Assembly (NCBI GenBank): GCA_049287305.1
Contig: JBAQFO010000013.1
Span: forward strand, 189-64,188
Reading direction: 5' to 3'
Length of the DNA stretch: 64,000 nt
DNA from: Minisyncoccia bacterium
GTDB taxonomy: Bacteria; Patescibacteriota; Minisyncoccia; Phycocordibacterales; UBA9973
Of this stretch, positions 19,208 to 49,625 are shown piece by piece. Both the position numbers and the translations under genes were made by a program. The notes below the pieces were generated by a model. It was not told where the DNA came from, ran no database searches, and worked only from the letters and a program-made list of their open reading frames with translations. Every line of letters begins with the position of its first letter. The stretch's first letter is position 1.

Positions 19208-19278
19208 TGCGGGATGCGAGAATCGAACTCGCGTCTAATCCTTGGGAAGGACTCATTTTACCACTAAACTAATCCCGC
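19208..19278 (-). tRNA. tRNA-Gly (anticodon CCC)
   Basis: reverse complement GCGGGATTAGTTTAGTGGTAAAATGAGTCCTTCCCAAGGATTAGACGCGAGTTCGATTCTCGCATCCCGCA folds as a cloverleaf: 7-bp acceptor stem, T-arm GCGAG-TTCGATT-CTCGC, anticodon stem AGTCC/GGATT with loop TTCCCAA; no encoded CCA. Confidence 0.8.
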
Positions 19279-34334: not shown

Positions 34335-37307
34335 TTATAGAACTATGTTGATAAGTCTGTTTTTCACGTAAATCACCTTTTTGACGGCAGAATTTTTTAC
34401 AAAGCGAATGATGGCCTCATCGCTCAAGGCTTGTTTCTTCACATTTTCTTCGGAATCATTTGCGTCTATTGTAATTTCCGCTCTCAATTTTCCATTTACT
34501 TGAATAACTACTTTAACTTGCTCATCTTGAATATAGGCTTTGTCCCACTTGGGCCAGCTGGAAGAATTTATGGACTTTTTCTCTCCCAACACGCTCCACA
34601 ACTCTTCGGCTATGTGGGGAGCAAACGGAGAAAGGATTTGCAGAAATTTTTTAAAGTCATCTTTGGTAATTTCATTTTTTTCCATTTCGTTGACCAACAC
34701 CATCATAGATGAAATTGCAGTATTAAAACGCATTTCTTCTATGTCTTCAGAAACTTTTTTGATGGTTTTATGAAGAAGCTTCTCGAGCGTAGTGGAAAAC
34801 AATTTCTCCGTCGCGTAAGTCCCACCCGGTATTCCGGGAAGGGTCAAGCGCGGAGAAATTATTTTTCGCGTAGCTGATATTTTTACGCCAATCTTCCAAA
34901 CTCTTTCCAGAAATCTTCGGGGTCCCACCATACTGTCGGTATTCCAAGAAACCGACTGGTCAAAAGGACCCATGAACATTTCATACATTCTGAGCGTATC
35001 TGCGCCAAAAGTTTTTATTAAATCATCGGGATTCACCGTATTGCCTTTGGATTTGGACATTTTTTCTCCGGCCTCGGCTAGTATCATTCCGTGGGAAGTT
35101 CGTTTCATGTACGGCTCGCTGGTAGGAACCAATTTCAAATCATATAAAAATTTATGCCAAAAACGCGAATACAACAAGTGAAGAGTCGTATGTTCCATTC
35201 CCCCGTTATACCAATCCACGCCGTTTTTCATGAAATATCCTAAATTTTTCTTAGAAGCAAATTCTTTGTTATTTTTCGGGTCGGTGTAGCGCAAGAAATA
35301 CCAAGAACTCCCCGCCCAGTTGGGCATTGTGTCAGTTTCTCTTTTGGCCGGACCTTTGCATTTTGGACATCGAACATTTACCCAGGATTTAATATCCGCT
35401 AGTGGGCTCTCTCCATTGTCGGTCGGTTTATATTTTGCGACCTTCGGCAAAATCACAGGCAAATCTTTGTCCGGCACGGGCACAAATCCGCACCCGCCTC
35501 GCGTCGACGAACCTCCGCGAGTCGAGGCGGGTTTATCGCAGAAAATGAGCGGTATAGGCTCGCCCCAATATCTTTGACGAGAGAAGACCCAATCACGCAG
35601 CTTGAAGGTTGTTTTTTCTTTTCCTCCAACAAACTTTATTATTTCTTTTTTTGATTCTTCTGAATCTAACCCATTAAATTTTCCAGAGTTTATTAAAATA
35701 CCGCCCGCCCCATAAGCAAATCCTGTGGCTTGATAATATTCCCAAGCCATTTTATCATCAGGGATGGTCAAAGTATCTAAAACCTTGCTCTGTGCAATCC
35801 ATTTCATTTCATGAGAACTTTTAGAAAAAAACTCGTCTTCTGTTATATCCACTTTTTCTTCCCCCATCAAGTCAAAAACTAAAGTTTGCACATTAACAAC
35901 TCTATTTACATTCTTATGGGCCGCAAAAAACCGAGCTTGAATTTTAAAAGGAATTTGTTCAACAAACTTAATATTTATATATCCCGTCTCCTCCTTTACT
36001 TCACGAATCGCGGCATCTATTTCTCTTTCCCCTTCTTCTATTCCACCGATTATAAAATTTACAGGTTTAGCTCCCTTCCATTCTTCACCTTTTAGAAACA
36101 TCAAAAGCACTGTCTCATTTTTTGGGTTTCGTAATATGACATGCACAACATTTCTTTTAGTATTTTCTTTGCCTTCCTGAGGAGGATTTTTACCATCAAG
36201 ATTATTTGGCATAACAACCTGCCTAATTGGCAAATTATATTTTTTGGCAAATTCAAAATCCCGCTCATCGTGTGCAGGCACAGCCATAATCGCTCCAGTT
36301 CCGTAATGGGGCAATACGTAATCGGCAATCCATACCGAAATTTCCTCTTTGTTGCCTGGATTTATGGCTTTTATTCCTTTGAGTTCTACCCCTGTTTTTA
36401 TTTTATCTTCTGAAGTTCTTTCAATTTCAGTGGTTTTCTTAACCTTGGTTAAATAGTTTTTGACCTCCTCCCAATTTTTTATTTGAGATTGCAATTTCTG
36501 CACCAACCCATGTTCCGGCGCAAGTACCAAGTATGTTGCCCCGAAAATCGTGTCAGGACGAGTAGTGAAAACCTTAACCTCTTCGGAAGCCACAGAAGAA
36601 ACAATTTTAAAATCTATTTCTGCCCCTTCCGACTTCCCTATCCAGTTCCTCTGTTGAATTTTAATTTTAGGAAGATAGTCAACGGTGTCCAAATCTTTGT
36701 CCAGACGTTCAGCATATTTGGTAATGGCAAGCATCCATTGTTCTTTTTCGCGCTTTTCCGTGACTCCTCCACAGCGTTCACACATACCTCCCACCACTTC
36801 CTCGTTGGCTAGTCCAATTTTACATGAAGGACACCAGTTTATTTCTGTCTTCGTCTTGTAAGCCAAATCTTTTTTAAAAAATTGCAAAAATATCCACTGC
36901 GTCCATTTGTAATATTTCGGGTCGGTGGTATTCACTTCTCGGGACCAATCAAAAGAAAAACCGAGCGATTTAAGTTGTCGCCTGAAAGTATTGGTATTGT
37001 CTTTGGTAACTTTTATGGGATGTATACCTGACTTAATTGCATAGTTCTCCGTGGGCAGGCCGAAGGCATCCCAGCCGATGGGGTAAAGCACATTAAACCC
37101 TTCCATGCGACGCTTCCTGGATATAATATCCATAGCGGTATTGGAACGAATATGCCCCACATGAAGTCCCGCCCCCGAAGGATACGGAAATTCAATCAGA
37201 CTGTAATATTTAGGTTTTTTAGATTTACTCGGAGCATTGAACGTCCCTTTTTTCTGCCAAAAAGTTTGCCATTTCTTTTCAATTTTCTTATGGTCGTATT
37301 CCTTCAT
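34335..37307 (-). CDS. leuS: leucine--tRNA ligase (LeuRS), with an apparent Nudix-fold insertion in the CP1 region
   Basis: FPYPSGAGLHVGH (HIGH), KMSKSKGN, editing-domain signatures TTRPDTIFGATYLVLAPEH and VPAHDERDFEFAKKY; 990 aa. Confidence 0.9.
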   Translation of the reverse strand: MKEYDHKKIEKKWQTFWQKKGTFNAPSKSKKPKYYSLIEFPYPSGAGLHVGHIRSNTAMDIISRKRRMEGFNVLYPIGWDAFGLPTENYAIKSGIHPIKVTKDNTNTFRRQLKSLGFSFDWSREVNTTDPKYYKWTQWIFLQFFKKDLAYKTKTEINWCPSCKIGLANEEVVGGMCERCGGVTEKREKEQWMLAITKYAERLDKDLDTVDYLPKIKIQQRNWIGKSEGAEIDFKIVSSVASEEVKVFTTRPDTIFGATYLVLAPEHGLVQKLQSQIKNWEEVKNYLTKVKKTTEIERTSEDKIKTGVELKGIKAINPGNKEEISVWIADYVLPHYGTGAIMAVPAHDERDFEFAKKYNLPIRQVVMPNNLDGKNPPQEGKENTKRNVVHVILRNPKNETVLLMFLKGEEWKGAKPVNFIIGGIEEGEREIDAAIREVKEETGYINIKFVEQIPFKIQARFFAAHKNVNRVVNVQTLVFDLMGEEKVDITEDEFFSKSSHEMKWIAQSKVLDTLTIPDDKMAWEYYQATGFAYGAGGILINSGKFNGLDSEESKKEIIKFVGGKEKTTFKLRDWVFSRQRYWGEPIPLIFCDKPASTRGGSSTRGGCGFVPVPDKDLPVILPKVAKYKPTDNGESPLADIKSWVNVRCPKCKGPAKRETDTMPNWAGSSWYFLRYTDPKNNKEFASKKNLGYFMKNGVDWYNGGMEHTTLHLLYSRFWHKFLYDLKLVPTSEPYMKRTSHGMILAEAGEKMSKSKGNTVNPDDLIKTFGADTLRMYEMFMGPFDQSVSWNTDSMVGPRRFLERVWKIGVKISATRKIISPRLTLPGIPGGTYATEKLFSTTLEKLLHKTIKKVSEDIEEMRFNTAISSMMVLVNEMEKNEITKDDFKKFLQILSPFAPHIAEELWSVLGEKKSINSSSWPKWDKAYIQDEQVKVVIQVNGKLRAEITIDANDSEENVKKQALSDEAIIRFVKNSAVKKVIYVKNRLINIVL

Positions 37308-44039: not shown

Positions 44040-47000
44040 TTAAGGTGCTGGCTCTGGAGCGGGTTCAGGTGTAGGTTCTGGAGCCGGTGCAGGCGCGGTT
44101 TCGGGAGTAGGTGTAGGAGCGGGTTCTGGTATGGGTTCGGGAACTGGTGCAGGGTCGGGAGTAGGTTCAGGTATGGGCTCCGGTGTAGGTTCTGGAGCCG
44201 GTGCAGGCGCGGGTTCGGGAGTGGGTGTAGGAGCGGGTTCTGGGGTTGGAGCTGGAGAACTGCCGCCGGAAGAAGAACCGGTAAGGATGAGCAGGGCGCG
44301 AATATCTTCCTTAGTCAGGCACTCCCCGTCCACGCATATCTTTTCTTTGGCTTCAAAGACGTTCGCGAAAACGGAGCCTATGCCGTTCGTTGCATCCGCG
44401 AGCCACGCGCCGACTTTACTGAAAAGCTTGGAGAGGATAGATCCTTCGCCTCTATTGACAAGTTCTCCATCCTGCGTCTCGTGCACATAATCTAGTTCCA
44501 AACTGTCATTTAAATCTTTCATTATTAATTCCATGTCTATAACCAGAGTCTTGCCTGTTTCCGAATTTGCAGAATCAAATACCCAGTAGTTGTTTACATT
44601 TTCGTGTGGTGAAAGTAGAGTAGCGTTCCCTGCCGCGTCCATTACCCGCAATTCTCCTGCCGTGCTGTAAAGAGAAATTCCGTTTGCCAGAGTTCCTACC
44701 GGAGCTGTGCCATTGAAGATGTCCAGATGGTTCGTGCCTTCAGTTGTTGCCCGGGCCACAGTTCCGGCAATTTTTATATTGCCAGCATTTGTTATTCTCA
44801 TATACTCTGTTAGTGTGCTAGACCCAGCACCAGCACCACCACCAGTACCTTTAAGCGAAAATGTAATAAAAGGTTCAACGCTATCTGTGGTGCCAGAATA
44901 AGCTCCAGAGAAAAGAACCTTGCCCTGGATAGCTGTGCTACCAACGCTCGTGTTCCATCCGTAACCGTCAAAAATAAGAGAGCCAGGCAAACTTTGGGAG
45001 TTTCCCGGTGCCGCTGTTTTATTGGTAATACCTAGAGAACCCGCATTGCTTACATCTAACAAATACCCCGGCACCGTCGTCCCGATGCCAACATTGCCCC
45101 CCGTTTGCACGACCAATCCTGCCGTCGCATTTGTAGCGCCTACATTTATGTTGAGATAGTCGGTTGCGGCATCGTTCATATAAAGGTTGCTGTATACACT
45201 ACTACCTGTATTAGAATCTCTTATTATAAAGCCGTATTCATTATCTTCCCCGTCCACCTCAATATACGCAGTCGCTGCTCCAGTATTTGCTGTGCTTAAT
45301 GTTAGTCCTCCCCCGGCTGCCATGTAAATATCTCCTATCTCTGTTGTTTCCGCTACGCCGCGCAGACGTAGACCAAGAGTGTTGGAGCCGGTATCTATGT
45401 CTAGTTGTGTGGCCGGAGTGGTGGTGCCTATGCCGACCTCGCCACTTCCTGTAACAACCATTTTTACTGAAGGGGTTGCTCCAGTGGCAAAAACAATATC
45501 AGTATCTGCTGCCCTACCCTGAAGAACAAGATTGCCTGCTCCCAAAAATGGATACGCTCCGCCGGTACTAGCTGATGCGTAAATCGAAGGAGTCGTTAAT
45601 GCTCCGAAGCTAGTTACATCGTTAGAAAATTTAAGAGTGCCAAAAGTAGTTGAGATGGTAGAATTTGCAGTTATTGCAGAATTCCAAGTACCTACCTGAA
45701 CAGTACCCGTAGAAGTTAATGAGGATGCGACTATAGTAGAACCTAAAGTCGTTCCGCTCAATACAGTTGTATCATTTAAAACAAAAGATGTAACAGCATT
45801 AACGCTCCCGTTTACATCAAGAGCATAGTCTGGAGTCGTATCACCGATGCCGACATTACCCCCTTTCAGTGTCAGAATCTCCGTAGAAGCTCCCGCTACA
45901 ATATTAGTAAAGTGCCAGCTGGCGTCCTCCGTTCCATTTGAAGCATCGTCCACTACCGCATAAATAAGCCCGCCGGTTGTTTCCACGGGAGTCACAGCGG
46001 TGTCATCCCAAAATTTAGCTCCGAATGTTCCGATCGAATCGCCGTCTAAGGCGGTCTTAGTAGCCCCTCTGGTTTTCCTGAATATCATTGCGGGGTTTGT
46101 GGTGTTGTCAGCAGTTTGCTCTAGGAGAAGCTGAACGGAATCTGCGTTCGCAACATGCAGAGAGACTTCAGGGGTAGCGGTGCCTATTCCAATTCTATTA
46201 CTAGCACCATCCACACTGAACGTAGTTCCGTCAATACTCATTCCATTTATCCCGCCGGAGGTAACAAAGTTAGTATCCTGGTCGAGTGTTACAGTAGCAC
46301 TGTTTATAGTCAAAGAAGTCAGGGTGCCCAGAGTAGTCAAAGAAGAAGTTACTATGCTGGAACCTAAGGTTGTTCCACTGAGAACAGTTGTGTCATTTAA
46401 AAGGAAAGAAGTGACGGCATTTATACTGCCGTTTACATCTAACTCATAGTCAGGTGTGGTGTCGCCTATGCCGACCTTGCCTGCATTCACTGAAGATAAA
46501 ATAACATTTCCATTTGTTTGTCCGACACCTCCGTCAATATATACATTTCCTCCTTGGTGAAATTGTACCTGGGCATCAGCCGCGGCACCACCTAAAATAT
46601 TTAAAGCATAACCGTCGTTGTCAATTCCAGAACGTTGAGAAACAGAAATTGTTCTAGCTGCTCCTTGGGTAAGTGTTATGTTTCCGGTTACTTCTAATGC
46701 TGAGGATGGTGTAGCCGTCCCGATACCGACGTTCCCCTCAAAATAAGCAGAGTTTGCTCTGGTAATCGTGGTGTTTGTGCCAGCTATTGGTTTCGGCACA
46801 TACAAAGAAAAAGCGTCTGTAACAGTGATAGCGTTTGTGGAAGCAAAAGTCGGAGCTCCGAAACTATTTGCAGTTCTTGTCGCTACTGTTCCTGCCGCCG
46901 CAGTGCTTGTGTCTGTATAAGTAGCGGCATTTACATCAAACGCAATACCGTCTGTAGTCCACGCTGCGGCTGAAATATTTCCGTCTATTTGGAGATGTGC

Positions 47001-49625
47001 AGTTGGTACAGTTGCCCCAATGCCGACAAAGCCCGTACTCGTATCTACATACAAATCATCAGTATTGACAGCAAAATCTCCAGTCGTTGCAAGCGAGACA
47101 TTCAAGTTTGAGCCGGAAGCGGGAGTGATGGTAAGCGCGCTGGTTGAAATGAGAGAAGGAGTGGAAACTGAAGTGGAAGATAAAAGTTTGGTAGCGGAAA
47201 GTGTATCTGTGGCAAATGTGAGATCTGCATCGTCTGAAAGAAGTCCGACTGCTCCTGCGAATGTTACTCTGCCCGCAGTGAGCGCGGAATTAGTTATGCT
47301 GCCTCCGGAGAGGGTCGTGTACGTTGCGGTGCCCAAGGCAGGGGTCACGAGGGTCGGGCTCGTATTCATTACAAAAGTGCTACCCATTCCCGTCTGGCTT
47401 GCGACCGCTGTCGCATTGCCGACAGAAGTAATCGGCCCAGTGAGGTTTGCATTTGTGGTAACTGTGGAGGCGTTGCCGGTCAAAGCCCCGACAAAAGAGG
47501 TGGAAGTAATTGAAGTGGCTCCGGCGATTACACCCGCGTCCAAAGTTATTGTTCCATCAAATGTAATGGCTTGTCCGGCAGTCGGAATGATAGCTAGTGT
47601 AGAAGCTCCTGCGGACGAAATAGTGTTTCCATTAATAGTGATGTCGTCCACGGTCAGAGTCGTCAGAGTTCCCAGGGAGGTAATAGCCGTCTGTGCCGCT
47701 CCGGTTACTGTCGCTGCTGTTCCTGAAACATTTCCCGTAACATTGCCGGTGAGCGGCCCCGCGAATCCTGTAGCAGTTAAAATATCTGTAGTTGCGTTGT
47801 AGGTGAGGCCCGCGTCTGTGGCTGGAGCAAGGGAGCCGGTGGCTGCGGTTCCCAAGGCGACAAATGTAGTGGTGTCGCCTGCCGCGTCGGCAAAAGTGAC
47901 CGTGCCCGCATTACCGGAAACAGTTGTCTGGTCCCCGGTGTTAGTGCCGGAAGAAGTGCCCGAGAAATTGGAGGCAGCTAAAGTGCCATCCACCTGCAAA
48001 TTTCCTCCAGATGAAAGATTAAGAACTTCAGTAACATTATTTAATACTGAAAGAGAATTGTCGGAAGCCAGAGATTTAATAAACCAAGTGTCGGTTAAAT
48101 CATCGCCGTCGTCAGCATCAAGCGCGATTACCGCGTCTGTTGCCTCCGCGCCCTGAATTTCGAGAAGGGCTTCCGCGCTGGTGCTGCCTATGGCAAGATT
48201 GCCGTTTGCATCCAAACGCATGCGCTCAGTGTCGTTGGTGCCGAATATTATAGGTATTGTATTGGTTGTCCTTATTAATGCCGTGGTGTTACCCTGGAAA
48301 GTAAGTTGCCCTAAATTCACCAGGCTGAAACCCATAGTCGTACCTACAGCATTCACGCCGTTATATTGGAGACGCGCGCTTTTGAATTGTGTTGAATAGT
48401 CAGAGCCTTCAAGCTCGATTACTGCTTGGTCACCACCTACGATGGATCCGTCGCCCATTACATCGACATTAGCTCCGTTAGTGCCCCCGTAAACGAAAAG
48501 CCGGCTGGCATTGCCGGCACCGCCGGCATTATCCGCGGAACCTATTCGCACCTCGCCGCCATTAGAGCCGGGCACAATCGCAAGCATAGAACGGCTATTG
48601 GTCGAATCATAAATGTCAAAGGTGCCGTTCGTCGCCGTGCCATTTCTAAGCTTCCATGTTGTACTCGAGGCTGTGGTATCAGTAAATGTCATTACCGGGT
48701 CCGCGCCGTTAAGTGCAAGCGAAGTATTTACGGTCGGGGTTGTGATGGAAGGGCTTGTGGCAAAGACCGATACTCCAGTTCCTGTTTCGTCAGTTAAAGC
48801 AGTTAGTAAATTTGCAGAAGAGAAAGACCCCAACAGAGTAGCATTTCCGGTGGAAGTAATCGCACCGGTCAGATTCGCATTTGTCGTAACTGTGGCGGCA
48901 TTGCCGGTTATAGAACCCACAATCGGATTGGTAACTTCTAAATCTGTAAACCAGCCTTTTAAAATTCTCGCAAGGGTCGTGCCGAGGGAACCGGTAGTGT
49001 TTACATTATTCGTACCTAGGTTCAAGTTGCCGGAAGACAATACCGGTATTTGGTCGCCGGTCGGGGTTTGTGAAGGTGTGAATCCTCCTACAGTTTTTGA
49101 ATTGATAGCATAACCCGAAGAAACAACGCGCTGACGAGGTGAAAGCGTTTCAAACGTAGTCACGCTCGCGCATGAACCCCCTGAGGAATTAGCAACTTCA
49201 ATATTGAGATAAATCTCATCCGTAGTTTGAAAATTAAAGTCCAGCGCGTCCCCGCCGGCAGACGTGTCCCCGATGTCGGCATTGAGAACACCGTTCTTGA
49301 CGTTGACCGTCATTTTCGACGGCGTGCCGGTGGGCCAGAGTTTGGAACCACTACCGACAGTAGTATTGTCATAAAAAGAAAAACGGAAACAGTAGTTGGT
49401 GCCAGAAGCCCCACCCAAAAGGTTGCCAGAAGAATCCAGGAGTCGGCCCTGATGATGGAGCATAAGCGGAGTACCAGACGCTGCAAAAACCGTATTAGAA
49501 ATTAAAATAGAAACAGAAAAAAGCATCATCAACACAAAAGTGATACTTTTTTTAGAGGAAAATAGTTGTAGTATTTTTTTTATCGAAAAGTCCATTTTCC
49601 GGCGAGTAGGTATACTACCCACCAC
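44040..49625 (-). CDS. giant (1861 aa) Thr/Gly/Ser/Asn-rich repetitive surface protein with a C-terminal Pro/Thr/Glu/Ala (PEPTPEPAP) repeat tail
   Basis: N-terminal signal/anchor helix; internal near-identical repeats (NVGIGDTTPDY(E/A)LDVNGS(I/V)NAVTSF(L/V)LNDTTVLSGTTLGS); C-terminal PEPTPEPAP repeats. Confidence 0.7.
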   Translation of the reverse strand: MVGSIPTRRKMDFSIKKILQLFSSKKSITFVLMMLFSVSILISNTVFAASGTPLMLHHQGRLLDSSGNLLGGASGTNYCFRFSFYDNTTVGSGSKLWPTGTPSKMTVNVKNGVLNADIGDTSAGGDALDFNFQTTDEIYLNIEVANSSGGSCASVTTFETLSPRQRVVSSGYAINSKTVGGFTPSQTPTGDQIPVLSSGNLNLGTNNVNTTGSLGTTLARILKGWFTDLEVTNPIVGSITGNAATVTTNANLTGAITSTGNATLLGSFSSANLLTALTDETGTGVSVFATSPSITTPTVNTSLALNGADPVMTFTDTTASSTTWKLRNGTATNGTFDIYDSTNSRSMLAIVPGSNGGEVRIGSADNAGGAGNASRLFVYGGTNGANVDVMGDGSIVGGDQAVIELEGSDYSTQFKSARLQYNGVNAVGTTMGFSLVNLGQLTFQGNTTALIRTTNTIPIIFGTNDTERMRLDANGNLAIGSTSAEALLEIQGAEATDAVIALDADDGDDLTDTWFIKSLASDNSLSVLNNVTEVLNLSSGGNLQVDGTLAASNFSGTSSGTNTGDQTTVSGNAGTVTFADAAGDTTTFVALGTAATGSLAPATDAGLTYNATTDILTATGFAGPLTGNVTGNVSGTAATVTGAAQTAITSLGTLTTLTVDDITINGNTISSAGASTLAIIPTAGQAITFDGTITLDAGVIAGATSITSTSFVGALTGNASTVTTNANLTGPITSVGNATAVASQTGMGSTFVMNTSPTLVTPALGTATYTTLSGGSITNSALTAGRVTFAGAVGLLSDDADLTFATDTLSATKLLSSTSVSTPSLISTSALTITPASGSNLNVSLATTGDFAVNTDDLYVDTSTGFVGIGATVPTAHLQIDGNISAAAWTTDGIAFDVNAATYTDTSTAAAGTVATRTANSFGAPTFASTNAITVTDAFSLYVPKPIAGTNTTITRANSAYFEGNVGIGTATPSSALEVTGNITLTQGAARTISVSQRSGIDNDGYALNILGGAAADAQVQFHQGGNVYIDGGVGQTNGNVILSSVNAGKVGIGDTTPDYELDVNGSINAVTSFLLNDTTVLSGTTLGSSIVTSSLTTLGTLTSLTINSATVTLDQDTNFVTSGGINGMSIDGTTFSVDGASNRIGIGTATPEVSLHVANADSVQLLLEQTADNTTNPAMIFRKTRGATKTALDGDSIGTFGAKFWDDTAVTPVETTGGLIYAVVDDASNGTEDASWHFTNIVAGASTEILTLKGGNVGIGDTTPDYALDVNGSVNAVTSFVLNDTTVLSGTTLGSTIVASSLTSTGTVQVGTWNSAITANSTISTTFGTLKFSNDVTSFGALTTPSIYASASTGGAYPFLGAGNLVLQGRAADTDIVFATGATPSVKMVVTGSGEVGIGTTTPATQLDIDTGSNTLGLRLRGVAETTEIGDIYMAAGGGLTLSTANTGAATAYIEVDGEDNEYGFIIRDSNTGSSVYSNLYMNDAATDYLNINVGATNATAGLVVQTGGNVGIGTTVPGYLLDVSNAGSLGITNKTAAPGNSQSLPGSLIFDGYGWNTSVGSTAIQGKVLFSGAYSGTTDSVEPFITFSLKGTGGGAGAGSSTLTEYMRITNAGNIKIAGTVARATTEGTNHLDIFNGTAPVGTLANGISLYSTAGELRVMDAAGNATLLSPHENVNNYWVFDSANSETGKTLVIDMELIMKDLNDSLELDYVHETQDGELVNRGEGSILSKLFSKVGAWLADATNGIGSVFANVFEAKEKICVDGECLTKEDIRALLILTGSSSGGSSPAPTPEPAPTPTPEPAPAPAPEPTPEPIPEPTPDPAPVPEPIPEPAPTPTPETAPAPAPEPTPEPAPEPAP

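Follow-up and report, generated by a model that had tools for sequence, protein, structure and literature searches.

Why an essential synthetase should carry a hydrolase inside its editing domain is the question raised by leuS, the leucyl-tRNA synthetase (LeuRS) gene in a stretch of 64,000 nucleotides from a Minisyncoccia bacterium (GenBank assembly GCA_049287305.1, contig JBAQFO010000013.1, positions 189 to 64,188; here called the window, with coordinates counted from its first letter). A first-pass annotation of the window reported that this LeuRS contains an intact Nudix box, matching the signature at every position, and that report holds. As the evidence below shows, a complete domain of the Nudix pyrophosphohydrolase fold occupies a variable surface loop of CP1, the editing domain, and it is probably catalytically active. 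We consider it somewhat better than an even chance that the domain is an accessory house-cleaning nucleoside-polyphosphate hydrolase, lodged in a permissive CP1 loop and independent of both leucylation and editing.

How the Nudix domain sits in the synthetase is seen by alignment to the Thermus thermophilus enzyme (1h3n). Residues 1 to 363 of T. thermophilus LeuRS correspond to residues 1 to 366 of the window protein and residues 376 to 581 correspond to residues 531 to 746, such that a 12-residue loop of the former (364 to 375) is swapped for a Nudix domain of 164 residues in the latter. The replaced loop sits between the AHDxRD editing motif (AHDERD, residues 345 to 350 of the window protein) and a G-I-x-x-N-S-G strand. 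The insertion is nested, with Nudix inside CP1 and CP1 inside the Rossmann fold. The first-pass annotation had placed the insertion in CP1 between the same two motifs, and the alignment bears it out on the point of insertion. The extent it gave, about residues 366 to 500, was too short, and its coordinates (35808 to 36155, residues 385 to 500) take in the Nudix core only and not the whole insert, which runs from about residue 367 to 530. The features concerned are as follows.

34335 to 37307, minus strand: leuS, full-length bacterial-type LeuRS of 990 amino acids (open reading frame, Pfam, match to T. thermophilus LeuRS at an E value of 2.5e-207, and exact database match).
35718 to 36209, minus strand: inserted Nudix domain with its linkers, residues 367 to 530, about 164 amino acids (alignment gap relative to 1h3n, AlphaFold2, and Foldseek).
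35781 to 36158, minus strand: Pfam NUDIX envelope (PF00293), residues 384 to 509 (41.3 bits, with the gathering score at 21.1; E value, 2e-10).
35979 to 36047, minus strand: canonical Nudix box GX5EX7REUXEEXGU, GGIEEGEREIDAAIREVKEETGY, residues 421 to 443 (fits at every position).
35901 to 35918, minus strand: family-specific conserved motif HKNVNR, with K465, N468, and R469 (invariant or nearly invariant columns in the insert alignments, including a 73-sequence set).
36186 to 36650, minus strand: CP1 editing domain ahead of the insert, residues 220 to 374 (Pfam PF13603, profile positions 1 to 148 of 185).
35628 to 35717, minus strand: CP1 editing domain past the insert, residues 531 to 560, containing ILINSGKFNGL (1h3n alignment and two-domain AlphaFold2 model).

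Whether the domain is an active enzyme can be judged from its box and from its conservation. The box lies between the editing motif VPAHDERDFEFAKKY (residues 343 to 357) and ILINSGKFNGL (residues 537 to 547), and a strict Nudix pattern had a single match when the window was translated in six frames and none in 300 triplet shuffles. A search with the window LeuRS stripped of its insert showed a Nudix insert in 73 of the 120 closest LeuRS, and the box was canonical in 61 of those 73. Across inserts sharing only about 37% identity, residues G422, E439, E440, and N468 (LeuRS numbering) are invariant, residues R385, E436, K465, R469, E492, and W503 are at least 90% conserved, and G422, E439, and E440 are likewise unchanged in 56 diverse homologues. 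Because the metal-binding glutamates are invariant at such divergence and 61 of 73 relatives keep the full box, we conclude that the domain is under catalytic constraint. Active enzymes sharing one class of substrate would be expected to show this pattern. K465, N468, and R469, together with R385, E492, and W503, are probably substrate- or phosphate-binding residues, and the basic residues R385, K465, and R469 would suit a polyphosphate. The possibility that the segment is ordinary CP1 sequence with a nonconserved box clearly fails, since hundreds of homologues share the box.

What the insert might act on is suggested by its fold and its nearest relatives. AlphaFold2 modeled the insert alone, from 56 homologues, with a predicted local distance difference test score (pLDDT) of 93.9, a predicted TM score (pTM) of 0.88, and strands and helices in the Nudix-type order. 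Foldseek matched the model to 526 Nudix chains of the Protein Data Bank (PDB) at an E value of ≤0.001, the top ones with a probability of 1.00, and the prediction that the segment folds as a Nudix domain is thereby supported. The first match was the Enterococcus faecalis MutT/Nudix protein 2azw, and ranks 2 to 4 were diadenosine tetraphosphate (Ap4A) hydrolases, namely, CT771, human NUDT2, and Aquifex aq_158 (TM scores up to 0.68/0.81; root mean square deviation, 2.7 to 2.9), with the nucleoside triphosphate pyrophosphatases NudI and NudB, and others, nearly equal in score; the top matches are small, monomeric Nudix enzymes. A single-sequence PDB search with the insert returned weak matches only. 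A profile of the 56 inserts best matched lupin Ap4A hydrolase (2.6e-9) and then AvrM14 (about 1e-8), which could be aligned along the entire domain, K..R and W positions included; MutT1 and ADPRase scored nearly like the Ap4A hydrolases. AvrM14 has been described as an mRNA-decapping Nudix effector (bioRxiv 10.1101/2023.11.14.566975). The asymmetric Ap4A hydrolases (lupin 1F3Y, Aquifex 3I7U, Chlamydia CT771 4MPO, and human NUDT2 4IJX) have the small single-domain Nudix architecture and full box in common with the insert, but identity to them is just 16 to 22%, the lupin alignment is limited to the N-terminal half, and the insert family, unlike them, has its own HK-x-x-NR and W motifs. A conserved aromatic residue, F460, lies about 17 residues past the box; a tyrosine at the equivalent position is what we take to be a marker of Ap(n)A hydrolases.

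The insert does not approach any NCBIfam equivalog cutoff. Of the NCBIfam models, RppH/NudH (NF001936) and YtkD match it best, though weakly (33.2 bits for a cutoff of 118 and 25 bits for one of 154, respectively), and neither model of the MutT 8-oxo-dGTPase reaches its cutoff (NF008044, 20.7 bits against 148; TIGR00586, 17.8 against 97.9). We conclude that the insert therefore represents a distinct Nudix family, the nearest relatives of which are small enzymes acting on tri- or tetraphosphate or 5'-5'-bridged nucleotides.

Whether the synthetase has lost anything to the insert is answered by the rest of the protein. NCBI MFZ2150162.1, titled [quoted passage not shown] is identical to it, and Pfam finds tRNA-synt_1 (PF00133), tRNA-synt_1_2 (PF09334), and Anticodon_1. 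The protein is collinear with T. thermophilus LeuRS up to residue 875 of 878, anticodon-binding and C-terminal domains included, and the LeuRS editing domain (PF13603) scores 218 bits in two stretches split around the insert. The signatures of the enzyme are in place, as listed here.

37152 to 37163, minus strand: HIGH signature, HVGH, residues 49 to 52 (conserved in Nudix-bearing relatives).
35049 to 35063, minus strand: KMSKS signature, residues 749 to 753 (motif and 1h3n alignment).
36549 to 36566, minus strand: threonine-rich editing motif TTRPDT, residues 248 to 253 (TTRxDT in all full-length Nudix-bearing LeuRS examined).
36237 to 36281, minus strand: editing motif VPAHDERDFEFAKKY, residues 343 to 357, which holds the universally conserved editing aspartate (motif, 1h3n alignment, and relatives).

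HIGH, KMSKS, the threonine-rich motif, and the AHDxRD aspartate are shared with the LeuRS of T. thermophilus (1H3N and 2BYT) and Escherichia coli (4AQ7 and 4ARC), and all four motifs (HIGH, KMSKS, TTRxDT, and AHDxRD) recur throughout the full-length Nudix-bearing LeuRS examined among species-representative genomes. Two differences from the T. thermophilus and E. coli enzymes stand apart from the insert: those enzymes have a leucine-specific domain (about residues 582 to 636 in T. thermophilus), whereas the window LeuRS is without one (junction at residues 746 to 749), and the window LeuRS has an extra Gly/Ser/Arg-rich loop, KPASTRGGSSTRGGCGF (residues 592 to 608; 35484 to 35534). To judge from these motifs and alignments, leuS here is apparently the ordinary housekeeping gene of the organism, complete for aminoacylation and editing, to which the Nudix domain has been added without replacing any part. 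The anticodon-binding region at about residues 811 to 840 (about 34788 to 34877) is hypervariable, with 6 to 20% identity in comparisons of relatives whose remaining sequence is about 80% identical. Finally, Nudix-bearing orthologues are often named "class I tRNA ligase family protein" by NCBI and Nudix-less relatives "leucine--tRNA ligase"; presumably, the insert spoils the equivalog match and a vague name results.

How widespread the architecture is bears on the earlier statement that it is unusual, which is not borne out in that form. A Nudix domain is absent from the LeuRS of model organisms and from the literature searched, but it is common in Patescibacteria and in some Bacillota. A pattern scan of species-representative genomes, followed by confirmation with tblastn, gave at least 170 GTDB species loci with Nudix in LeuRS. 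About 70 of the best 80 loci encode a full-length LeuRS of 900 to 1,200 amino acids with the Nudix box about 75 residues past AHDxRD, and the source bins are labeled Saccharibacteria, Paceibacterota, Magasanikbacteria, gut "uncultured Bacilli," Clostridia, and, in a few cases, Woesearchaeota. An exhaustive profile search of 1.84 billion cluster representatives returned 159 clusters (50% identity) at an E value of ≤1e-30, mostly LeuRS. The architecture has been in the database since groundwater metagenome-assembled genomes of 2016 (e.g., P0250, Nomurabacteria). The window itself stems from a metagenome-assembled genome, and a chimeric contig, or a pseudogene in which an unrelated Nudix gene is read through in frame, could in principle mimic the architecture. 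The same architecture on hundreds of independent contigs from several phyla excludes such an artifact; moreover, the frame is open throughout, the flanking motifs are conserved, and the two-domain AlphaFold2 model is confident, and we give that explanation practically no credence.

Two sets of relatives deserve separate mention. A subgroup of Nudix-bearing LeuRS from gut bins labeled "Bacilli" or "Muribaculaceae" (L037, L048, L049, L055, L057, L059, L060, L063, L067, L075, and L078) has the variant signatures HAGH(P/V)E for HVGH and KMGKR(Y/F) for KMSKS and a box that starts GTIK or GSIK, which could mark the subgroup as a paralogue or as a divergent lineage of LeuRS. In addition, four loci from bins labeled Woesearchaeota or "archaeon" (L014, L020, L036, and L042) encode a bacterial-type LeuRS with the Nudix insert, which reflects either interdomain transfer between co-occurring reduced-genome lineages or misbinning.

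Why some relatives retain the domain with an altered box leads to another explanation, in which the domain is mainly a noncatalytic module, a nucleotide sensor or an extra surface on CP1 for binding tRNA or a partner, that may compensate for the leucine-specific domain missing from the window LeuRS. Consistent with such a role, 12 of the 73 insert-bearing relatives keep the domain with the glutamate of GX5E changed to Q and the box arginine replaced, some LeuRS carry tandem copies that include degenerate boxes, and the CP1-Nudix unit is predicted to be rigid. The box is fully canonical in the window and in the 61 other relatives, however, the metal-binding glutamates are invariant in distant inserts, many equally close LeuRS are without the domain, and the degenerate forms may simply be decaying copies. 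Thus, we regard a mainly noncatalytic domain as improbable.

Whether the synthetase needs the domain is addressed by the relatives that lack it. No Nudix insert is present in 47 of the 120 closest LeuRS (39%), and on a neighbor-joining tree of LeuRS bodies, built on p-distances and rough, presence and absence require at least 26 changes (shuffled labels, mean of 37.5 and minimum of 31). One Nudix-less relative with about 80% body identity (P0237) has the gene order of the window (YchF, methyltransferase, DUF948, DUF5671, leuS, TPR, MurJ, ABC transporter, and LepA), and the variation is therefore presence or absence within one orthologous gene. We considered that a neighboring Nudix gene might complement in trans and rejected the idea, as no separate Nudix gene lies within 8 kb on either side of leuS in the Nudix-less relatives examined. 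The slot itself holds a short ordinary loop in one relative (P0218), unrelated loops of 30 to 60 amino acids in others, and in another a 147-amino-acid segment without assignment (P0301). In the P0237 group, a larger deletion takes the next CP1 strand too. Members of that group (P0237, P0227, P0229, P0231, P0258, and P0264; 763 to 793 amino acids; L085, 8001 to 10331) are the shortest Nudix-less close relatives; they have ADD in place of AHD (PADDxRD) and are also without the CP1 strand GILINSGKFNGL and the helix that follows. To judge from these losses, their editing domain is truncated and its function possibly impaired.

How the insert varies among relatives that have it is unlike the variation of the rest of the gene. 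Among the 73, mean identity is 38% for the insert and 74% for the LeuRS body, figures that are rough, and the two identity matrices correlate weakly (r = 0.16); the narrow identity range of the sampled bodies in itself lowers this value. There are at least 17 insert types (under about 45% identity between types), and LeuRS bodies are practically as alike between types (identity, 0.742) as within a type (0.754). The window and a relative with 82% body identity (P0216) are 90 to 100% identical in the flanks, up to "...KKYNLPI" and from "GGIL.NS.KFNGLDSE," whereas the inserts are 16 to 30% identical save for the Nudix box, and the boundaries are sharp. Another relative of equal body identity (P0217) has an insert 65% identical to that of the window. 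Uniformly relaxed constraint is ruled out as the cause of the mosaic by this pair of comparisons. The insert looks like an exchangeable cassette from these alignments, and the mosaic can be explained by exchange of old, diverged cassettes via conserved flanks or by repeated capture at one site. By identity, inserts at the CP1 site interleave with Nudix copies at a second site, ahead of the threonine-rich motif, and with short, apparently free-standing Nudix proteins, some of which may be gene-call fragments.

Other domains are inserted in related LeuRS as well. Two or three Nudix domains, some with degenerate boxes, occur in P0065, P0066, and P0082; a Ser_hydrolase (alpha/beta) domain occurs at three different sites; and HAD_2 (P0190), Ham1/ITPase (P0113), and DUF559/MTES_1575 endonuclease-like (P0218 and P0241) domains are found. 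Further relatives listed with these kinds of insert are P0104, P0210, P0301, P0074, and P0259. In window numbering, the insertion hot spots are at about residues 208, 236 to 243, 367 to 530, 541, 606, 648 to 652, and 817 to 836. Nudix is by far the commonest hydrolase insert in these LeuRS, and Nudix, Ham1, and HAD are classic "house-cleaning" hydrolase families. An accessory domain is supported by its absence from 47 of the 120 closest LeuRS, by the minimum of 26 changes on the tree, and by the syntenic Nudix-less relative. Patchy presence, cassette-like exchange, and the co-occurring house-cleaning inserts argue, moreover, for an accessory function rather than for LeuRS proofreading.

How the Nudix domain occurs apart from a synthetase body is seen in gut Lachnospirales and other Clostridia. 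Very common there are proteins of about 284 amino acids in which CP1, with Nudix inserted at the site used in LeuRS, makes up the whole protein (L081 to L084, 5001 to 5855; L040, 3740 to 4639; L041, 3764 to 4696; proteins P0014, P0026, etc.). P0026 is annotated only as "NUDIX domain-containing protein" and is found in 666 index blocks. Compared with the window insert and its flanks, the stand-alone proteins are 33 to 34% identical over 100% of the length, with the same Nudix family at the exact CP1 site, but their threonine-rich motif is lost or degenerate and the editing His and Asp are degenerate (PAHIQEHF). To our knowledge, no natural autonomous CP1 paralogue has been described before. The neighborhood repeats the house-cleaning theme, with a Ham1 gene upstream in L040 and another Nudix gene downstream in L041. 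In L081 to L083, the gene is preceded by an element that starts with a large serine recombinase (L081, 1 to 4979) and carries a pVip viperin homologue (PADLOC, E value of 7e-38), an HTH_1 gene, and several genes without assignment. A shorter recombinase element lies at the same place in L084, with Zip transporter fragments flanking both sides. The site upstream of the stand-alone gene looks like an integration hot spot. Because the viperin gene is absent from L040 and L041, which have Ham1 and Nudix genes instead, it reflects an adjacent insertion, and we rejected the link to defense that it seemed to offer.

Allele-like variation in an essential gene might nonetheless point to conflict, or to the ends of RNA. 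The domain could guard against nucleotide-mimic toxins such as adenylate analogues and chain terminators, with its variation driven by an arms race, or it could process the 5' end of LeuRS-bound tRNA in the manner of RppH or of a decapping enzyme. Several observations would fit a role of this sort: the cassette polymorphism with its sharp mosaic boundaries, a weak similarity to PDC-S07, a PADLOC candidate family (E value of 1.8e-5), RppH and YtkD as the best weak family matches, and AvrM14 aligning along the entire domain. CP1 is, moreover, located at the tRNA acceptor end in established LeuRS structures. Set against both, the pVip neighbor belongs to the recombinase-bearing element, the PADLOC match is weak, and the putative substrate-binding residues are conserved in all insert types, such that specificity is apparently not diversifying. 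We think a role of this kind a long shot.

How closely the domain works with its host is the harder matter. A functionally coupled hydrolase, the idea raised in the first-pass annotation, would clear the Ap4A or diadenosine triphosphate (Ap3A) that LeuRS makes when ATP attacks bound Leu-AMP, or would clear misactivated aminoacyl-adenylates, and thereby constitute a third hydrolytic activity of the enzyme. The nearest solved relatives, by sequence and by fold, include asymmetric Ap4A hydrolases, and the conserved basic residues R385, K465, and R469 may suit a polyphosphate chain. Moreover, different phyla have the insertion at one and the same site, Nudix is predicted to pack rigidly on CP1, and the stand-alone proteins keep the two together. 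On the other hand, 39% of the closest LeuRS manage without the domain at the same locus, inserts are swapped between near-identical LeuRS bodies, and other sites in LeuRS are taken by unrelated hydrolases (Ham1, HAD, and alpha/beta). With an intact editing site, the enzyme has no need of substitute proofreading. LeuRS is also a poor producer of Ap4A, and aminoacyl-AMP is not a pyrophosphate substrate; by established Nudix chemistry, hydrolysis of the adenylate is chemically unlikely, given that its bond is a mixed anhydride rather than a pyrophosphate. We consider coupling of this kind unlikely. Slightly less probable still, in our estimation, is an exchangeable cassette aimed at the ligands of LeuRS itself, a third and swappable hydrolytic function in which the CP1-Nudix unit also works alone. 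Its candidate targets would be the ends of LeuRS-bound tRNA(Leu), from which a cap or pyrophosphate might be removed, dinucleoside polyphosphates made by LeuRS, and adenylate-mimic toxins that hit LeuRS.

The accessory house-cleaning hydrolase that we favor would work as follows. The Nudix domain would hydrolyze a nucleoside polyphosphate in a Mg2+-dependent manner, and the likeliest substrate would be a small tri- or tetraphosphate compound, either a dinucleoside polyphosphate of the Ap4A type or a noncanonical (deoxy)nucleoside triphosphate. Leucylation and editing would proceed unaltered, with LeuRS serving mainly as a permissive, constitutively expressed carrier, and loss, swap, or duplication of the domain would be harmless to the synthetase. 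Several observations weigh against this reading. AlphaFold2 modeled the 346-amino-acid CP1-plus-Nudix segment at a pLDDT of 93.1 and a pTM of 0.88 with both linkers at high confidence, which suggests that Nudix packs on CP1 in a defined manner and not as a floppy tether. The insertion site is identical across phyla, and the stand-alone proteins, although they have lost the synthetase body, still pair CP1 with Nudix. Fixed site, rigid packing, and stand-alone unit together could indicate functional cooperation with CP1 rather than hitchhiking. The degenerate boxes in 12 of 73 inserts hint at a noncatalytic role in at least some relatives, and no NCBIfam equivalog threshold is reached. Finally, the case for exchange draws on the rough identity statistics, the narrow sampling of bodies, and the rough tree noted above.

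Elsewhere in the window, the sole Rfam match is one tRNA (19208 to 19278, minus strand), and a very long open reading frame of 1,861 amino acids lies at 44040 to 49625 (minus strand).

Bacterial aminoacyl-tRNA synthetases are usually viewed as architecturally conservative, and the acquisition of new domains is taken to be mainly a eukaryotic theme. Where Nudix or other accessory modules are joined to housekeeping enzymes, as in NadM-Nudix, mycobacterial MutT1, and the domains appended to eukaryotic synthetases, the fusions are terminal; the window domain, in contrast, lies within a domain that is itself an insertion in a bacterial synthetase, and it varies like a cassette. Both of its parts belong to well-known families, and the combination is widespread yet undescribed, as full-text searching of the literature turned up no account of a LeuRS with Nudix inside it. 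A 2026 survey of domain insertions treated the LeuRS editing domain as insert only, with zero host events (PMC13114784), and the Nudix-in-CP1 architecture contradicts that view. In these reduced-genome bacteria, intact small-molecule hydrolases are found time and again in defined surface slots of an essential synthetase, and the hydrolase domains are gained, lost, and swapped between near-identical leuS genes, an unusual cassette dynamic for an essential gene. The sites together form a natural map of insertion-tolerant positions in LeuRS that could help engineering. These organisms cannot make nucleotides de novo. Ultimately, the Nudix-bearing LeuRS offers a candidate, testable link between translation and the hygiene of the nucleotide pool or of the alarmone Ap4A.

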